From: Candidatus Bathyarchaeum sp.
Lineage (GTDB): Archaea > Thermoproteota > Bathyarchaeia > Bathyarchaeales > Bathyarchaeaceae
DNA: 18,563 nucleotides
Direction: 5' to 3'
Assembly: GCA_026014495.1 (NCBI GenBank)
Contig: JAOZIF010000172.1
Location: 1-18,563, forward strand
Shown here: positions 4,042 to 16,418 of the stretch, one piece after another
How positions within the stretch are numbered: position 1 is the stretch's first letter
How the letters are laid out: each line of letters opens with the position of its first letter
Program-made: the position numbers and the translations under genes
The notes under the pieces: generated by a model
Database searches by the model: none
What the model was told of the DNA's origin: nothing
The model's input: the letters and a program-made list of their open reading frames with translations, nothing else

Positions 4042-5286
4042 ATGGCAGTAGGCGACATAGCGTGGATATCAACCGCAACCGCACTCGTCATGCTAATGAC
4101 GCCCGCATTAGGATTCTTCTACGCTGGCCTTGTACGAAAGAAAAACCTTGTTTCAACACTAGTTCAATGCCTGATAATCTTTGCAGTATCAAGTCTAGTT
4201 TGGACCCTCTGGGGATACAGTCTCACATTTGGAACCAGTATTGGCGGCTTCATAGGTGACTTTTCACTAGTAGGCCTAAACAACATTGGAATAAACACCA
4301 TAAGCTCGTATGCACCACAAATTCCAGAACTCCTCTTTTTTGCGTTCCAACTAAAATTCGCCGCAATCACTCCTGCATTGATTATCGGAGCTTTTGCAGA
4401 ACGAATCAAATTCCGTTCACTTTTAATCTTCACCGTAGCATGGTCAACGTTCATCTATTCGCCGGTAGCCCATTGGGTATGGAACGCCAACGGCTGGTTG
4501 CACTTTTTGGGTGCAGTTGACTTTGCAGGTGGCATTGTAATTCATGTTACAGCAGGATTTTCTGCATTGGCTGCCGCGCTAGTTATAGGTAGACGAAAAA
4601 TACTTGACAAATCAACCAACAACTGCAATGGAGTTGAACACAAGGCCTGTAACATACCATACGTAATACTTGGTGCATCGTTACTGTGGTTTGGCTGGTT
4701 TGGGTTTAACGCAGGCAGCGCATTAGAAGCAAACGCGTTATCGGTTTCAGCACTTGTAGCAACTAACCTTGCTGCTGCAGCAGCCGCAACAAGCTGGATG
4801 ATTGCTGATTGGGTAACAAAAGGAAAACCCTCTGCAGTCGGTATTTCTGTTGGCGCAGTTTGTGGATTGGTGGCAGTAACGCCAGCATCAGGATATGTTA
4901 GCGTCACTTCTGCAATTATAATTGGTTTATCTGCAGGGCTCATATCAAACCTCGTAGCTAACTGGCGTTCAGCAAAAACAAGAATTGACGATTCTTTGGA
5001 CGTTTTTGCATGCCACGGAATAAGTGGTGTTTGGGGCTCCATAGCAACTGGATTGTTTGCCACAACAATGGTAAACAATGTAAACGGGCTGTTCTTTGGC
5101 AATTCTGATTTATTGATTGCTCAGGTGCTGTCTGTTGTAATTGTTGCCGGTTACTCGTTCTTTGGTTCATTGCTTTTGTTGAAAATAATCAACATTTTCT
5201 CTCCACTACGAGTAAGCTCCGAAGAAGAAACAAAAGGTCTAGACCTTAGCCAACACGGAGAAGAAGCATACGACTTAGGATTCTAA
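4042..5286 (+). CDS. amtB: Ammonium transporter (Amt family)
   Basis: Motifs FFYAG, FQLKFAAIT, HWVW, DFAGGIVIH, WFGWFGFNAGS, DDSLDVFACHG and EETKGLDLSQHGEEAY; the twin His residues are intact. ATG4042 follows AGGTG. Confidence 0.97.
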   Translation: MAVGDIAWISTATALVMLMTPALGFFYAGLVRKKNLVSTLVQCLIIFAVSSLVWTLWGYSLTFGTSIGGFIGDFSLVGLNNIGINTISSYAPQIPELLFFAFQLKFAAITPALIIGAFAERIKFRSLLIFTVAWSTFIYSPVAHWVWNANGWLHFLGAVDFAGGIVIHVTAGFSALAAALVIGRRKILDKSTNNCNGVEHKACNIPYVILGASLLWFGWFGFNAGSALEANALSVSALVATNLAAAAAATSWMIADWVTKGKPSAVGISVGAVCGLVAVTPASGYVSVTSAIIIGLSAGLISNLVANWRSAKTRIDDSLDVFACHGISGVWGSIATGLFATTMVNNVNGLFFGNSDLLIAQVLSVVIVAGYSFFGSLLLLKIINIFSPLRVSSEEETKGLDLSQHGEEAYDLGF

Positions 5287-5425
5287 ACAAGCTCAGAACA
5301 GCAATTCTAAGTCAAATCTTTTTTTCTCTTTCTTTTTCAACAAACATGAAGCTCATTTGTTCCACAACAAACAATATTACACTTTGAAAATGCTACCTAA
5401 AACCTTTTGAAAAAAGGAGTAGAGT

Positions 5426-5497
5426 GCAGGAAATTAATGGGTGATGTCTTTTCTTATCTTATGCTTAACTTCCTGCGAGCCTCCCGCATGGGGCAGG
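5426..5497. other. Intergenic stem-loop structure between the convergent amt and Lrp-domain genes
   Basis: GCAGGAAATTAA (5426-5437) and TTAACTTCCTGC (5465-5476) pair at 11/12 positions. A second hairpin CTCC-CGCAT-GGGG follows (5481-5493). Confidence 0.5.
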
Positions 5498-5527
5498 GAA
5501 AATTTACTTGAATTTTGTTTTTTCTTA

Positions 5528-5764
5528 TCAGATAGATTGTTTGGGCATTGCGACTGCTGTCTGAGTTTTTTGAACACCTTTTAGTGCTTGAACTTTTTGA
5601 ATTATATTTGTAAGTTCATCAATGTTGGAAAATTCTGCGTATGCAATAACGTCATAATTTCCAGTTACCACCTGCGCCATTTTAACTCCCTTAATTTTGA
5701 GTATGGTGTCTGCAACTTTCCAAACCATTCCGGAGCTACATTCAAGTAACAAATAGCTTTCCAT
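5528..5764 (-). CDS. Stand-alone Lrp/AsnC ligand-binding (RAM) domain protein
   Basis: VTGNYDVIA and IQKVQALKGVQKTQT patterns; 78 aa with no HTH. GGAGG precedes ATG5764. Confidence 0.85.
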   Translation of the reverse strand: MESYLLLECSSGMVWKVADTILKIKGVKMAQVVTGNYDVIAYAEFSNIDELTNIIQKVQALKGVQKTQTAVAMPKQSI

Positions 5765-6065
5765 CTGTACATCCTCCACATATCTCTTTGTTACTTTGCT
5801 TAATTACAGTTTACCCATATCCACGAGAGATTAGTTTGAAAAAAGAAATTAATGGAGTTTAATTTGCTGTTTTACAGCCACTTCCGTTTTGGTCGCCATC
5901 ACCACACTTGGGTGCTAGTTCAGGGGCTATCGTCATTTTGTCAAATAATGCGCGGGTTAACTGGATGTTTTTTTGGATAAGTAGTGGCATATTTTGTCTC
6001 TGATTTCTTTGGGTTACGTGTTTGTGTGGGTTTGGGCTTAAACTTTTAAAGATAACTGAAGACAT

Positions 6066-7022
6066 ATGGTGATGATTTCAATGCTCTCTTTCATTGTTGC
6101 TATGTTGTCCGTGGTAATTCTTGGTTATATTGTGATTTGCCTTTTTCTATCAAGAACACTTATCTATTTAGATCGGCAGCCTGTGCCAAAAACGCCAAAA
6201 GATTATGGAATGGATTTTCAGACTGTAGACTTCAAAGCAGCAGACGGCGTTAACCTAAAGGGGTGGCTTATACCAGCTAAATCAAACAAGCTGATTGTTA
6301 TCACTCATGTTGGGGGCTTGACAAAGTACGGGTCAACTAAACTGTTCAGCAGTTTCTCTAAGCTCTACAACGAAGAAATCGAGTTCTTGAAAGTAGCCCG
6401 TCACCTACACAATGAGAACTACAGTGTTTTGCTGTTCGATTTTCGGAACCATGGTGAAAGTGGTTCCAGCCCAAATGGCGGCAAAGCGGGAATAGGTTTA
6501 GAAGAGTATCAAGATGTTGTGGCTGCAATGAACTACATTCAAAACAACAAAAACTTGACAGATAAAAACGTGGGTTTCGTCAGTTTTTGCATGGGCGCAA
6601 ACTCTACAATTATCGCTATGAGCAAGCAGCCAAAAATGTTTGAGAACGTTAAATGTTTGGTTGCTGTTCAGCCGATTTCAATGGAAGTGTTTGTACGTTC
6701 ATATCTGAAGAAGAGATTTAGTTTGTTTGGGGCTACATTGTTGTTTCCTTTGATTAAATTGTTTGTTAACTTGCAAAGCAAATACCGACTTGAAGATATG
6801 TCGCCTGCCATGTTTGTTCAAGATCTGAAAGTGCCTACCTTGTATGTTCAAACAAGAAATGACCCATGGACGGAATTAAGCGACATACGTGGTTTTTACA
6901 ATAGAACTCCAACAGAAAAGGAGCTCTTTTGGCTTGAAAAGTTGAACCATAGATTTCAAGGTTACCAATACTTTGGAGAGCATCCTGAAAAAATGCTTGA
7001 GTGGCTAAAAAAATGGATGTGA
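6066..7022 (+). CDS. Membrane-anchored alpha/beta hydrolase with a Cys nucleophile
   Basis: N-terminal TM helix; DGVNLKGW, FDFRNHGES and EYQDVVAA motifs; nucleophile elbow SFCMG; candidate acid in RNDPW and His in LNHRF. Confidence 0.88.
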   Translation: MVMISMLSFIVAMLSVVILGYIVICLFLSRTLIYLDRQPVPKTPKDYGMDFQTVDFKAADGVNLKGWLIPAKSNKLIVITHVGGLTKYGSTKLFSSFSKLYNEEIEFLKVARHLHNENYSVLLFDFRNHGESGSSPNGGKAGIGLEEYQDVVAAMNYIQNNKNLTDKNVGFVSFCMGANSTIIAMSKQPKMFENVKCLVAVQPISMEVFVRSYLKKRFSLFGATLLFPLIKLFVNLQSKYRLEDMSPAMFVQDLKVPTLYVQTRNDPWTELSDIRGFYNRTPTEKELFWLEKLNHRFQGYQYFGEHPEKMLEWLKKWM

Positions 7023-11242: not shown

Positions 11243-11453
11243 GTTCAAAACCTCTGTTTATACTTAAAAATCGTTCTTCACACTTCTTAAACATATCTAA
11301 AACTGCAGTCTGGATGTTTAATTCAGCGTGGAATCCGTAGCTAACATATTCTAGCTAGAGTGGCAGAATATTTTGTGGCACAGCGCTTATATTGCAAAAG
11401 AGATGTTTAAACTCATAAAATATTGCAAGGTTTTCGAAAGGAGAAAAAATGAA

Positions 11454-12812
11454 ATGCCCAAAACCAAGTTTATGTGCTTCGTTTTACTAACTGTGTTATC
11501 TTTAGCTGCATGCTGTCCTGTTGGTTACTCACAGGCAGTCTTAACCTTGGATGATTTGCCTAGTTCGGGTGAATCTCTAGTTGTTAGTTCTGATAGTGTA
11601 TTGACCGTAAACGAGGGAGAAACCGCTGTTATTGATGGTGCCGTTATACAGATAAATGGAACAGAGCATGCCCTAACAGAATTTAAAATCATAAACAATG
11701 GAGAATTCACTATAAAGAACACTCAAATCCGGTGTAACACTGCCAACTTTACAATACAAAATATGGGAACGCTAAATCTCAAAACAGTTCACTTCACTGT
11801 GATAGGCAATTCCACGTTAGCCTTAGACAACCAAAACAACTGCGAAATGAGTGACACTTCAATTGACGTCTATGGCGGCTACGCACACCTCTCAAACAGT
11901 GACTCATTGACTGTCAATAACGGCTACTTTAAAGACCAGTTTGATGGCACACTCATCGCAAACTCTGGTGATGCACTATTCTCTGAAACTACTTTTGTTG
12001 CAAACGGTGCTTCTGGAAAAATCGAAATCTTCACCAGTGGCGACCTTAAACTCACTCATGGAGTGTTTGATGTTAACTATGGCGGAACAGTGAACATCAA
12101 CAGCTTGACTGGAACCATGACAGTAAATAACTGCAACATGGACATCTCAGGATGGTCTCATGGGAAAAAGAGTTCCGTGAACATTCTGTGTGGAAATAGC
12201 ACTTGGGAATCGTGCTCACTGGTTAACAACGCTGGAACATTTAATTGTCTAAACACTGGAGTCGTTCATGTATCTGATTGTACAGCCTCAGTATCATCAA
12301 TTAACTCGTCAACAATTTTGTCAAACAGTGGACAAATGTTTTTCGAAAACTTTGACCTTTCTGGCTCTGGGTCTGCTAGTATAACCAACTGGGACATTAT
12401 GGATTTAACTGACAGCTCTTACGCTTCCAGTCACTCCTTAACTTTGATGAACAACGGAGAATTAACAGCAGAAAATTGGTTTGTGAAAACAACGTCCAGC
12501 ACCGCCAGAATTGTAGTTTACAATGGCAATAATGCCACATTGGCATTTGATGCTCCATTTATCGAAAACGTTGACGTTTCAACTCTGACTTCTATTGGTC
12601 CTGAAGGTCACGAATTCGTTGAATCTTCAGGCGGAATCATCACTGTAACAAACAACAATGTGATAACTCAAAAAAGTAGCACAAACGGCGATTTGGATTC
12701 TAGTCTGCTTTACATTCTGGTGATTGCCGCGGCTGTAATCTTAGTTATAATCGTCCTTGTCATGATGAAGAAAAAGAACCAAAAACCAGACGCTCCAAAT
12801 CAGGAACTTTGA
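11454..12812 (+). CDS. Secreted, C-terminally membrane-anchored surface protein (probable beta-helix/beta-solenoid)
   Basis: Signal-peptide-like N-terminus from ATG11454 (MPKTKFMCFVLLTVLSLAA), an Asn/Ser/Thr/Gly-rich repetitive body, and a TM helix LLYILVIAAAVILVIIVLVMM followed by KKK. AGGAG lies upstream. Confidence 0.8.
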   Translation: MPKTKFMCFVLLTVLSLAACCPVGYSQAVLTLDDLPSSGESLVVSSDSVLTVNEGETAVIDGAVIQINGTEHALTEFKIINNGEFTIKNTQIRCNTANFTIQNMGTLNLKTVHFTVIGNSTLALDNQNNCEMSDTSIDVYGGYAHLSNSDSLTVNNGYFKDQFDGTLIANSGDALFSETTFVANGASGKIEIFTSGDLKLTHGVFDVNYGGTVNINSLTGTMTVNNCNMDISGWSHGKKSSVNILCGNSTWESCSLVNNAGTFNCLNTGVVHVSDCTASVSSINSSTILSNSGQMFFENFDLSGSGSASITNWDIMDLTDSSYASSHSLTLMNNGELTAENWFVKTTSSTARIVVYNGNNATLAFDAPFIENVDVSTLTSIGPEGHEFVESSGGIITVTNNNVITQKSSTNGDLDSSLLYILVIAAAVILVIIVLVMMKKKNQKPDAPNQEL

Positions 12813-12822
12813 TGTGCTTGCT

Positions 12823-12987
12823 TTAACTGGTTTCTTTCAAGTCACAGGGAAGATAAAGAGTCTGCTCTGCAAGGAAGGCACCTAACAGATTACAGTAAAA
12901 ACGTCCCTCTATCTTGTCGATGTGCTTACACGATTTGCAAACGCTTTCTGTTCCAGAAAACTTTCCGAGTACCGTTTGGTTAGTCAT
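12823..12987 (-). CDS. 54-aa four-Cys metal-binding microprotein
   Basis: Manual translation: MTNQTVLGKFSGTESVCKSCKHIDKIEGRFYCNLLGAFLAEQTLYLPCDLKETS* (C-x2-C-x11-C-x15-C). ATG start with upstream AAGGG. Confidence 0.65.
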   Translation of the reverse strand: MTNQTVLGKFSGTESVCKSCKHIDKIEGRFYCNLLGAFLAEQTLYLPCDLKETS

Positions 12988-13138: not shown

Positions 13139-13267
13139 TTATATGAATGACTGTCTTTTTGGCGGTGGTTTTCGTGTTAGTGATGACATTTTCTTTTCGA
13201 GATTGTTGACGCGTATTTTTAGGTCGACCAATTCCTTTTGGAGCTCAGTCATTGTTGGTTTGGACAT
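13139..13267 (-). CDS. 42-aa basic coiled-coil microprotein
   Basis: MSKPTMTELQKELVDLKIRVNNLEKKMSSLTRKPPPKRQSFI*. Heptad pattern, GGGGG RBS-like element, an AT-rich TATA-like stretch upstream and a C-rich/oligo-T tract downstream. Confidence 0.65.
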   Translation of the reverse strand: MSKPTMTELQKELVDLKIRVNNLEKKMSSLTRKPPPKRQSFI

Positions 13268-13485: not shown

Positions 13486-14907
13486 TCAACGCTGGCGCTT
13501 CTCACTAAGAGGCAACCTTATTCTAATCGTTGTTTTGTTCCCGTATATGTTATACTTGTGAAGTTTCCTGCCCTCCGGAATCCTATCTACCAAACCACAC
13601 TTTACAAGAGTCTCCAAATTCCTCCAAAGTCCCTTCTTGGCGCCCTTCTTTAAAGCCATCTTCTCAAACAACTCACTCACCGTCATTGGCTCAGAATGCT
13701 TCTTATAATGAGTCGCCAACTCAACAAGAATCTGCCTATTTCGTTTTGAACCCAGAGCATCTAATGTCTTCTCGGTCAACTCCTCTGGAACGAACAAACT
13801 CTCATGCGTTCCAAGAATCGTTTCCATGGCCTCATAATATGGCTTTATGAACTCCCAGTAACACTTCAAAAATGTTCGTTTCAACTCACGCGAAGCAGTC
13901 TCATCCTCCACATACTTTTTTGTTACCAGATCTTTCCAACAGGGCTCTTCACCCTTCTTTGTGGCTACTGGAGCAAATGGCTGAATAATGTTCCTTGCAA
14001 GATAATCAAGAAACTTTAGCGAAACTTTTTGTTGTTCGTAAATTTTGCGACTAACATCCCGATACGAGTCACTTATGAATAAGGTCTCATCTGGGTTTAG
14101 GTCTCGTGACTGCAGGTACCTCATAGGCTTTCCTGAAACTGTAACTGGGTCCGGCAAAACAATGGTTGCGGGGTATTCAATTCCATGGTCTACGCAAATC
14201 AATTTCTTGAGGATTGAGAGTCCTGCATTTGATTTGTCAAAAATGTTGTATGATGTACCTAAATAGCTAAGGGACTCTAGGCCCCAACTGACATATGGGT
14301 ATGTCTTGATTTCTGTTCCAAGCTTGTTTCTGTCAAACAGGTAAATCTCAAGGAGCTCTTTTTCGTATTCTGTGAATGTATACGTTTTTTCGGTAAGTTT
14401 AACTGCAGTTGCTTCATGAAGCCTCTCGTATGTATTTATCTGGTTGAGTATGTTCTGGAGGCTCTTTTCGAAGTCAAGAATTCTTAAGATGCTATACACA
14501 TCTCTTTGTATTTCTATTCGGTCCTCGATAATCACAGCTTTTGCGCTTGGAGCAAAAACTCCTTGAAAAAACTTGTGCGCCTCTGCAACCCGCTCTCTGA
14601 TATCCCCACGATGGTATCCTCTGCCAATATCTCGTAGAGCTCCAATATACACAACTGGGTTTATTGAATAACCGCTCTCTATGAGTTCTTCAACAAGAAA
14701 GAGCGGGAGAAAATGTTTCAGTTGTGCTACTTCTAAATCTGCGTGGAACGCCACCACTATAACAGAATTAAGTTTTCGTCTTTTCCACTCTTCGCCTATT
14801 CCATCAACAACTCGGATTTTTTCCATTTCTGGAAAGCGTTGGCTGAACCATTTTTCAGACAACAATGGTAGCGGAATGCCTTCTTCCGCATCTTTAATGT
14901 TGGTCAT
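13486..14907 (-). CDS. Putative regulator: degenerate TyrRS/TrpRS-like (class Ic) domain fused to a C-terminal winged-HTH
   Basis: The long ORF and GAGGG RBS are clear. The fold assignment was made by eye: QLKH (HIGH position), VSGKPMRY (KMSKS position), ETLFISDSYRDVSRKI, ELKRTF...FIKP, then ArsR-like LDALGSKRNRQILVEL...MTVSEL...LWRNLETLVKCGLVDR. Confidence 0.65.
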   Translation of the reverse strand: MTNIKDAEEGIPLPLLSEKWFSQRFPEMEKIRVVDGIGEEWKRRKLNSVIVVAFHADLEVAQLKHFLPLFLVEELIESGYSINPVVYIGALRDIGRGYHRGDIRERVAEAHKFFQGVFAPSAKAVIIEDRIEIQRDVYSILRILDFEKSLQNILNQINTYERLHEATAVKLTEKTYTFTEYEKELLEIYLFDRNKLGTEIKTYPYVSWGLESLSYLGTSYNIFDKSNAGLSILKKLICVDHGIEYPATIVLPDPVTVSGKPMRYLQSRDLNPDETLFISDSYRDVSRKIYEQQKVSLKFLDYLARNIIQPFAPVATKKGEEPCWKDLVTKKYVEDETASRELKRTFLKCYWEFIKPYYEAMETILGTHESLFVPEELTEKTLDALGSKRNRQILVELATHYKKHSEPMTVSELFEKMALKKGAKKGLWRNLETLVKCGLVDRIPEGRKLHKYNIYGNKTTIRIRLPLSEKRQR

Positions 14908-14960
14908 TTATTATCTCCCTCTTCCTATTTTGTTACATACGTTTCATTTAATATGGATAA

Positions 14961-15041
14961 AAGTAACATCTAATGTAACTGGCTTCTATATACCTTATTT
15001 CTCGTTTTTAGTATATAAGCTTAAGTAACAATTAATGTGAC
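14961..15041. promoter_or_regulatory. Divergent promoter region: TATA (minus strand, about 15011-15022) flanked by two 19-bp candidate operators
   Basis: AAGTAACATCTAATGTAAC (14961-14979) and AAGTAACAATTAATGTGAC (15023-15041) are 16/19 identical with core TNACA-N5-TGTNA. The minus-strand AAGCTTATAT is identical to the amt TATA region. Confidence 0.6.
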
Positions 15042-15149
15042 CAAAAATTCTAAACGCTTACTTTTTAAGCCTTAAAGAATAATCCACTCCCTCACATTAT
15101 GTTAGTTCGGTGAAAGGAAATGCAAAAACATCCTCGCAGGAGCCAAACG

Positions 15150-15269
15150 TTGGCTAAACCTGAAATAGACCTCGAACATGAAATAGAAACCGAGAAACCC
15201 AAAAGGCCTCTACCCATGTGGTGCAGAGGAATTATGGGCGGATGCGTCAACTGCGGCGGATGCGTTTAA
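15150..15269 (+). CDS. Cys-rich peptide (39 aa; 49 aa if started at ATG15120)
   Basis: MAKPEIDLEHEIETEKPKRPLPMWCRGIMGGCVNCGGCV*. AGGAG lies 8 nt before TTG15150, and a hairpin terminator follows the stop directly. Confidence 0.7.
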   Translation: MAKPEIDLEHEIETEKPKRPLPMWCRGIMGGCVNCGGCV

Positions 15270-15292: not shown

Positions 15293-15410
15293 AAAACTAC
15301 CCCCACCTAACCGGATAAAATGGGGGAGACTTTCTCTATTTTTCAAACCTTAAGCTGTTCAGGAGTAAAGCTCTTACACTGCTAATACTTTAGTGATATC
15401 AGGGAAAAAA

Positions 15411-16418
15411 GTGAATAACTGGAAATCCGTTTTGAAAGCGGATCCAACAAACTGGCTGCTAGAGAAATCCAATCCTTCAGTGCAATATTTCGCCCTCACT
15501 GAACTTTTACAAAAACCTGAAACCGACCCTGATGTAATCACAGCAAAAAATGAAATAATGCACATCGGAACCGTGCCAAAAATATTGTCTAAGCAAAGTG
15601 ACCAAGGCCGCTGGGAAACCCCTGACAGATTCTATACTGCTAAATACAAAGGTACAGTGTGGCAGCTCATAGTATTGGCAGCGCTCGGAGCAAATAAAGA
15701 CAATGAACAAGTCAAAAAAGCATGTGAATTCATTTTGGAGAACTCCCAAGACCACGAGAGCGGCGGCTTTTCAATTTGGCGTAGTGCAAAAACTGGAGGC
15801 GGACGACATAGCGGAGTTATTCCATGCTTAACTGGCAACATGGTTTGGAGCCTAATTAAGCTCGGATTTTTTGAAGACCCCAGAGTTGAACGCGCAATAA
15901 ACTGGATTACCCGGTATCAAAGGTTTGACGATGGCATTGATCATGTTCCTAAAGGTTGGCCTTATGATAAAGCTACAAGCTGCTTTTCCAATCACTCCTG
16001 TCACATGGGTGCTGCTAAGGCGTTGAAAGCGTTAGCGGTAATTCCTGCTCAAAAAAGGTCTGCTGAAGTCAAAAGCACGATTGAAGTGGGGGCAGAATAT
16101 TTTTTGTTGCACCACATTCACAAGAGAAGTCATGATTTGAATCGTGTTTCTAAGCCTGGTTGGCTCAAATTCAGTTTTCCTTTAATGTACCAGACTGATG
16201 CATTAGAACTCTTGGATATCTTGACACTGCTTGGTTACCGAGATGAACGAATGCAAGAAGCCATCGATTTAGTAGTTTCTAAGCAGAACGATTCTGGGCA
16301 ATGGCTTCTAGAAGGAACTTTCAATGGACGTTTTCAAACAAACATCGAACAGAAAGGCAAACCAAGCAAATGGATTACATTGAATGCACTAAAAGTGTTA
16401 AAACGGTTCTACAGCTAA
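15411..16418 (+). CDS. Terpenoid-cyclase/protein-prenyltransferase-fold (alpha/alpha barrel) protein of unknown function
   Basis: QW-type repeats KQSDQGRW, YQRFDDG and KQNDSGQW; N-terminus DPTNWLLEKSNPSVQY; C-terminus KGKPSKWITLNAL. Likely start GTG15411. Confidence 0.75.
   Translation: MNNWKSVLKADPTNWLLEKSNPSVQYFALTELLQKPETDPDVITAKNEIMHIGTVPKILSKQSDQGRWETPDRFYTAKYKGTVWQLIVLAALGANKDNEQVKKACEFILENSQDHESGGFSIWRSAKTGGGRHSGVIPCLTGNMVWSLIKLGFFEDPRVERAINWITRYQRFDDGIDHVPKGWPYDKATSCFSNHSCHMGAAKALKALAVIPAQKRSAEVKSTIEVGAEYFLLHHIHKRSHDLNRVSKPGWLKFSFPLMYQTDALELLDILTLLGYRDERMQEAIDLVVSKQNDSGQWLLEGTFNGRFQTNIEQKGKPSKWITLNALKVLKRFYS

Follow-up and report, generated by a model that had tools for sequence, protein, structure and literature searches.

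A tyrosyl-tRNA synthetase-like fold joined to a winged helix: a putative autoregulated one-component transcription factor in Bathyarchaeia

We analysed a stretch of 18,563 nucleotides from Candidatus Bathyarchaeum sp. (GenBank assembly GCA_026014495.1, contig JAOZIF010000172.1, hereafter the window). One of its genes (P0001) encodes a protein, here called the regulator, in which a domain with the fold of a tyrosyl- or tryptophanyl-tRNA synthetase (TyrRS or TrpRS) is followed by a winged helix. Our reading, to which we give a probability of about 70%, is that the regulator acts as a one-component transcription factor that controls its own gene: its sensor would be a full-length TyrRS/TrpRS-fold pseudo-synthetase unable to activate amino acids, and its output the C-terminal winged helix of the ArsR type.

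A synthetase fold joined to a winged helix

An AlphaFold2 model of the regulator, computed from a 21-sequence family alignment (mean predicted local distance difference test score (pLDDT) 76.8, predicted template modelling score (pTM) 0.71), contains in order a strand, helix, strand, helix, strand, long helical insertion, strand, helix, strand and helical domain. This is the class Ic synthetase fold with its Rossmann core, CP1 insertion and anticodon-binding domain, and the tyrosyl-type architecture is present in full through residue 366. In a Foldseek search of the PDB, the top matches (E about 1e-8, probability 1.00) were all archaeal or eukaryal TyrRS and TrpRS, including engineered variants of the M. 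jannaschii TyrRS. The regulator thus has the same fold as the archaeal/eukaryal-type class Ic enzymes of family PF00579 (A. pernix 2CYA, A. fulgidus 2CYB, M. jannaschii 1J1U and 1U7D, and the A. pernix TrpRS 3A04), from which it differs in lacking a PF00579 match, HIGH and KMSKS, in the apparent replacement of the partners of the tyrosine hydroxyl and in the added C-terminal winged helix. Z values do not separate TyrRS from TrpRS as the nearer fold; the remnants of motifs (YP, DS..D(I/V)..KI and (D/E)LK...P) are nearer to the TyrRS of the same genome than to its TrpRS.

Sequence searches gave a very different picture. PF00579 did not match the regulator at E<=10, and a scan of the whole genome with this family recovered only the genuine TyrRS and TrpRS genes, both on contig C85 and each with an intact KMSKS-type motif. 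Pfam has no family for residues 1-366, and searches of Pfam, NCBIfam and PDB sequences with the single protein and with profiles found nothing for these N-terminal 366 residues; against all PDB sequences, phmmer and profiles matched only the winged helix, and weakly. The hhalign comparison with the genome's own TyrRS (E 0.018-0.032, about 2% probability) was not significant, nor was that with its TrpRS. In the former non-significant alignment the best local match pairs PDETLFISDSYRDVSRKI with PQSSILVHDSVEDIASKI, right after KMSKS, which coincides with a segment singled out in the initial annotation of this DNA; the N-terminal third of the alignment, which conflicts with the structural order, was discarded and the remainder was used as a guide only. 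That annotation had proposed a class Ic pseudo-synthetase on the basis of a series of landmark strings, and all of them are indeed present (F54-x7-Q62-L63-K64-H65, Y203-P204, P254-VTVSGKP-M262, L276-FISDSYRDVSRK-I289, E341-L-K343 and F353-IK-P356). The model, complete as a class Ic synthetase, bears out the proposed fold of the N-terminal part; the likeness stands as predicted structure but not as sequence statistics, and the regulator, judged by defining sequence motifs, is outside PF00579.

HIGH and KMSKS are required for amino-acid adenylation, and their loss, described in the initial annotation for one protein, holds across the regulator family. After strand beta1, where HIGH is expected, Q62, L63 and K64 are nearly invariant and H65 gives way to T or A in distant members (QLKT, QVKA, QLKA). 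The loop after strand beta5, in the KMSKS position, reads SGKPMRYLQSRDLN; S258, G259 and Y264 are invariant and K260 is variable (K/V/R/I/S). This loop is modelled with low confidence (pLDDT <50 at residues 265-269), and a low-stringency, non-significant hhalign alignment pairs S258-G259 with the Q-G ahead of KMSKS in the genome's TyrRS. The absence of the motifs that contact the ATP phosphates argues against adenylate formation, and the genuine TyrRS and TrpRS of the same genome imply that the regulator is not needed for tRNA charging.

We traced other residue equivalences with TyrRS from the order of secondary-structure elements and the non-significant profile alignment, and they are therefore provisional. 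On this basis, Y203-P204 corresponds to the YP of TyrRS, D224 to the ribose-binding Asp of GxDQ, S258-G259 to the (D/Q)G ahead of KMSKS, and the specificity-determining Gln and Asp that follow YP, already thought to be substituted, are Ser and Leu. Invariant polar and aromatic residues (H55, D57, Y203, W208, Y220, D224, N227, S258 and G259) cluster on the elements of the active site. The positions that bind the tyrosine hydroxyl and the phosphates appear replaced; apparently kept are the YP motif, the loop after strand beta5 and the ribose-binding Asp (D224). This combination favours an adenosine-containing or aromatic ligand over tyrosine plus ATP. An adenosine-containing molecule, an aromatic molecule or a tRNA 3' end would suit such a pocket.

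Might the regulator still be an enzyme? It is well established that one-component regulators can derive from enzymes, examples being BirA, RbkR, ROK and MocR. In BirA, the biotin protein ligase and bio repressor, a synthetase-like fold is combined with a winged helix and repression acts through a dyad operator. BirA is, however, an active enzyme of class II-like fold that has its winged helix at the N-terminus and makes its own corepressor, the adenylate, whereas the regulator is of class Ic, carries its winged helix at the C-terminus and has lost its ATP motifs. RbkR, an archaeal riboflavin kinase with a winged helix that has kept its activity, is autoregulated and has lineage-specific operators and a small regulon defined by comparative genomics (PMC5397151). 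The regulator resembles it as an archaeal one-component regulator made of an enzyme domain and a winged helix, with autoregulation in its case predicted, and differs in that the fold of RbkR is unrelated and still active, its ligands are cytidine triphosphate and flavin mononucleotide, and its distribution is wide, compared with the three Bathyarchaeia genera of the regulator. Moreover, the cyclodipeptide synthases (AlbC, Rv2275, YvmC) are enzymes built on a class Ic synthetase-like Rossmann domain without HIGH and KMSKS (PMC3105412). The regulator could accordingly be a bifunctional enzyme-repressor that catalyses a non-classical reaction, for instance on an aminoacyl-tRNA or a nucleoside, with the substrate or product controlling DNA binding, and the invariant residues on its active-site elements would fit this idea. 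Yet we recognised no catalytic signature, both phosphate-binding motifs are gone, and a conserved pocket is equally expected of a pure sensor, so that we consider a bifunctional enzyme unlikely. A cyclodipeptide synthase proper was rejected, since it would be a single Rossmann domain of about 230-300 amino acids without an anticodon-binding domain, whereas the regulator keeps the full TyrRS architecture; no cyclodipeptide synthase occurs among its 50 best structural matches.

The C-terminal domain is modelled as three helices, the last followed by a recognition helix and a beta-hairpin wing, which is the ArsR/SmtB fold. Its closest structures are DNA-binding repressors throughout, confirming the ArsR-type winged helix-turn-helix first proposed for this end of the protein; PF01022 and PF12840 gave weak matches only. 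The putative recognition helix spans about residues 421-436 and contains the invariant R429 and N430.

Both domains belong together. A phmmer search of 1.84 billion representative sequences found only five full-length clusters at 50% identity: four of them (100, 46, 46 and 35% identical to the regulator) have both domains in one chain, and the fifth (P0123, 385 amino acids, 43% identity) keeps the winged helix and misses only the N-terminal ~90 residues. The remaining matches were to short fragments, which share 53-88% identity with stretches of the regulator. Relatives with 76-90% identity (192) all come from Bathyarchaeia, as do all 35 loci found among 185,579 species genomes, where the fusion is kept in every case. 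The initial annotation had named three outcomes that would count against it, another fold at the N-terminus, a C-terminus other than a winged helix, and two normally separate genes; on all three points the result favoured its reading. A fold search of the ESM Atlas retrieved synthetase clusters and ArsR clusters separately and none that joins them; a feature search of the same resource was uninformative (scores of 0.80 or less). Within the class, the gene is present in 11 of 301 sampled genomes, distributed over three genera, two families and one order, and it is absent from one genome of the same genus that is assembled as a single contig and is 97% complete, a patchiness that marks it as accessory rather than core.

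Strong purifying selection acts on both domains. In pairs with unsaturated synonymous sites, the ratio of nonsynonymous to synonymous substitution rates (dN/dS) was 0.07-0.08 over the synthetase-like part and lower still, 0.02-0.03, over the winged helix, and identity between genomes (79-81%) is near that of the genuine TyrRS of the same genomes (83%). The 'dead' synthetase domain is therefore clearly functional. The gene is split into two frames in two genomes, G139 (C42:17744-19101, residues 3-285 and 300-473) and G121 (C2:65201-66605, residues 5-84 and 84-472), which could be due to frameshift, decay or assembly error.

Putative paired operators and the predicted regulon

The promoter of the regulator gene contains two perfect copies of a 17-bp dyad, GTNACA-N5-TGTNAC, which lie 62 bp apart, within 80 bp, and flank the TATA box. 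This arrangement is highly conserved. Of 33 promoters (the window and 32 orthologous loci), 27 have at least one perfect dyad at a fixed offset from the TATA box, and wherever both sites are perfect in an orthologous promoter their spacing is 61-62 bp, even though the rest of the spacer around them has diverged. An extra half-site nearer to the gene is kept as ATATGTAACAA in most orthologous upstream regions, and a purine-rich ribosome-binding site, read from the sequence, precedes the ATG. The position of the dyads, on the same face of the DNA and flanking both the TATA box and the transcription start, suggests repression by occlusion or bridging.

Perfect dyads are also in excess in the 2.19-Mb genome as a whole, with seven observed for 2.5 expected. 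Two are those of the regulator promoter and a fifth one elsewhere, on contig C96, is half of a second pair; the four others (on C46, C107, C146 and C166) are lone and intragenic, and we treated them as due to chance. Paired dyads were seen only in genomes with the regulator gene, always including its own promoter.

The link between protein and operator is one of association, and in a synthetase context a winged helix may also bind RNA. A different factor might thus bind the dyads, the regulator gene being just one of its targets and the winged helix serving for protein contacts or for binding RNA or tRNA. We deem this quite improbable: the restriction of paired dyads to gene-bearing genomes, with the gene's own promoter always included, is the usual signature of autoregulation, and the nearest structures of the winged helix are all DNA-binding repressors, with an invariant Arg-Asn in the putative recognition helix.

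The second pair in the window's genome lies on contig C96 (about 4979-6830) and consists of a perfect site at 6806 and a 9/10 match at 6743, 63 bp apart. It precedes genes for a small zinc-ribbon protein and a 548-amino-acid Fe-S flavoprotein. The latter combines a dicluster domain like that of HdrC with a GltD-like Pyr_redox_2 domain, and its family matches are all below the curated cut-offs. In five further genomes, sites paired at 60-62 bp precede the orthologous zinc-ribbon/ferredoxin/flavoprotein operon. Orthologues of the flavoprotein (at least 64% identity) occur in seven of nine regulator-bearing genomes and in none of five related genomes without the regulator, which have only paralogues of 38-53% identity, devoid of sites, and no instance of two perfect sites within 60-63 bp; we take this co-occurrence as support rather than proof of regulation. 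In addition, a complete Bathyarchaeum genome (L044 2768-4960, around 372,900) carries the full promoter cassette in duplicate, from site 1 through the TATA box and site 2 to the TGTAAC half-site. A second copy of the small Cys-rich gene that diverges from the regulator gene (type A, see below) stands alongside, and downstream there is a 558-amino-acid NapH-like membrane polyferredoxin instead of the regulator. The conserved paired operators and small conserved regulon thus lend weight to the DNA-binding role predicted in the initial annotation.

These same operators speak to another possibility, namely that the regulator has no action on DNA and instead binds tRNA, reporting on tRNA(Tyr/Trp) or handling it. 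The protein does keep the architecture with which archaeal TyrRS binds tRNA in full, down to the anticodon-binding domain. However, the conserved operator pairs would then have no explanation, and scans of the window for tRNA genes and Rfam elements detected no tRNA gene or known RNA element, so that such a role seems very improbable.

The homologue with 35% identity, P0125, has another dyad upstream (L041 1060-1195), GTCGC-N6-GCGAC, together with repeated GCGAC half-sites. In this single observation, the recognition helix and the operator may have diverged together. Separately, a lone site, GTGACATCACATGTCAC, is identical in three genomes (G302 C5:212492, G303 C1:9216 and G148 C6:7067).

Proposed mechanism and significance

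We propose that the winged helix of the regulator would bind the GTNACA-N5-TGTNAC dyads as a dimer. When occupied, the two sites, which share one face of the DNA, would block TBP/TFB or RNA polymerase and might be bridged through a synthetase-type dimer. The blocked promoter would result in repression of the regulator gene, of the divergent small Cys-rich gene and, at its own operator pair, of the oxidoreductase operon. The affinity for DNA would change when the remodelled amino-acid/adenosine pocket holds a small molecule or a tRNA 3' end.

Several points weigh against this reading. The regulator's binding to DNA, its oligomeric state and its ligand are predictions throughout, and the dyads could be bound by another transcription factor. 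A TyrRS-style dimer would set the two C-terminal winged helices far apart for a 17-bp dyad. The alignment behind the model is shallow (21 sequences, effective number about 2.3), with some loops poorly defined, and the residue equivalences with TyrRS depend on a non-significant alignment. Family models match the winged helix only below their curated cut-offs: the sole NCBIfam match, the ArsR/SmtB model NF033788, scores 17.9 bits over residues 380-449, far from its cut-off of 55. As for the regulon, two regulator-bearing genomes have no flavoprotein operon, one copy of this operon has no recognisable sites, and the co-occurrence counts come from related, non-independent genomes and so overstate the support.

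A bolder version can be formulated, in which class Ic synthetase folds were recruited, once or repeatedly, as sensors of archaeal transcription factors. Here, an aromatic metabolite, a nucleoside or the condition of a tRNA 3' end would be sensed by the remodelled tyrosine/adenosine pocket or by the retained tRNA-binding surface, and sensing would translate directly into repression of an Fe-S flavoprotein electron-transfer operon. The regulator would then be the protein equivalent of a T-box or riboswitch, derived from a translation enzyme. This is a tentative extension that we hold to be rather unlikely in its entirety.

Literature searches retrieved no description of a class I synthetase scaffold as the sensor of a DNA-binding regulator, in keeping with the earlier remark that the architecture was not recognisable as a described family, and a 2022 review of synthetase paralogues makes no mention of such a fusion (PMC9437257). 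If confirmed, the regulator would add a new fate to the list of those paralogues, and a sediment lineage that is uncultured and abundant worldwide would gain a defined operator and regulon. The regulator would also be a natural case of a TyrRS pocket re-tuned for sensing. Protein engineers reshape this same pocket in the M. jannaschii TyrRS. The system lends itself to direct testing, with a single protein, a site of 17 bp and few candidate ligands.

Neighbouring genes

The features of the regulator locus are listed in Table 1.

Table 1 Coordinates of the regulator gene, its domains, its putative operators and the divergent small ORF (open reading frame) in the window.
Feature	Position	Strand	Remarks
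Regulator gene P0001, TyrRS-fold pseudo-synthetase with winged helix	13486..14907	-	473 amino acids, ATG start; from ORF and translation
ArsR/SmtB-type winged helix-turn-helix	13507..13788	-	Residues 374-467
Class Ic (TyrRS/TrpRS-type) synthetase fold	13810..14874	-	Residues 12-366; Rossmann core, CP1 insertion, helical anticodon-binding domain
G259-K-P-M-R-Y264 loop	14116..14133	-	After strand beta5, in KMSKS position; no KMSKS present
Q62-L63-K64-H65	14713..14724	-	In HIGH position, start of helix after strand beta1; placed by secondary-structure order in the model
Extra half-site TGTAAC	14932..14937	-	Between site 2 and ribosome-binding site
Putative operator site 2, GTTACATTAGATGTTAC (gene's strand)	14963..14979		Starts 33 bp downstream of TATA box, just past expected transcription start
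TATA box TTATATA of regulator gene	15012..15018	-	Read directly; same offset in orthologous loci
Putative operator site 1, GTCACATTAATTGTTAC (gene's strand)	15025..15041		Between two divergent promoters; ends 6 bp upstream of TATA box
Type A Cys-rich small ORF	15120..15269	+	49 amino acids, invariant tail WCRGIMGGCVNCGGCV; divergent, probable co-regulated neighbour

The nearest neighbours on the divergent side are small ORFs of two kinds, seen in the window and in the upstream regions L015, L019, L023, L025, L026, L028-L030, L034, L036 and L038. Type A, encoded about 220 bp upstream of the regulator gene in 13 of the 35 loci, has 47-49 amino acids, with a variable N-terminal half and an invariant tail, WCRGIM(G/S)GCVNCGGC, that closes the protein with C-x6-C-x2-C-x2-C. 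The core evolves under coding constraint (pN 0.02-0.08 versus pS 0.31-0.79, for nonsynonymous and synonymous differences, respectively). Type B takes the same divergent position in 11 other loci; it has about 64 amino acids, is helical and contains C-x2-C-x3-C. The two types look unrelated and neither has a Pfam family.

A small peptide with a variable N-terminal half and an invariant C-terminal core in 13 loci, replaced in 11 others by one with CxxCxxxC in the same place, could also be the substrate of a modifying enzyme, in which the winged helix would recognise the leader of the peptide and the synthetase-like domain would modify it, for example in a tRNA-dependent manner. We find this highly unlikely. 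The recognition elements of ribosomally synthesized and post-translationally modified peptides (RiPPs) have a strand-first order, unlike the winged helix of the regulator, which is helix-first as in DNA-binding ArsR proteins. Loci without any small ORF exist (e.g., L021 and L024), and the conserved dyads and distant regulon members would be left unexplained. A complex prediction for the regulator and the 49-amino-acid type A peptide gave a score of 0.00, with controls absent, and counts neither for nor against binding.

Elsewhere, the window also encodes TBP, Amt, rubrerythrin, PurC and LarA, a gene content that marks it as archaeal. Synteny of PurC, LarA and a 341-amino-acid alpha/alpha-toroid protein with the regulator gene is limited to part of the loci, and the toroid gene (15393-16418) was dropped as a candidate partner, being beside the regulator in only 11 of 35 loci. 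A 479-amino-acid protein (11373-12812, plus strand), without family match and present in only 4 of 35 loci, has a signal-like N-terminus, repeats rich in Asn, Thr and Ser, and a C-terminal membrane anchor. Downstream of the regulator gene, a 42-amino-acid, coiled-coil-like ORF (13139-13267, minus strand) is conserved in four loci and overlaps a 76-amino-acid ORF on the plus strand, and a 54-amino-acid ORF without Pfam family (12823-12987, minus strand), which contains a CxxC motif and additional Cys residues, is conserved in seven loci with 81-88% identity.

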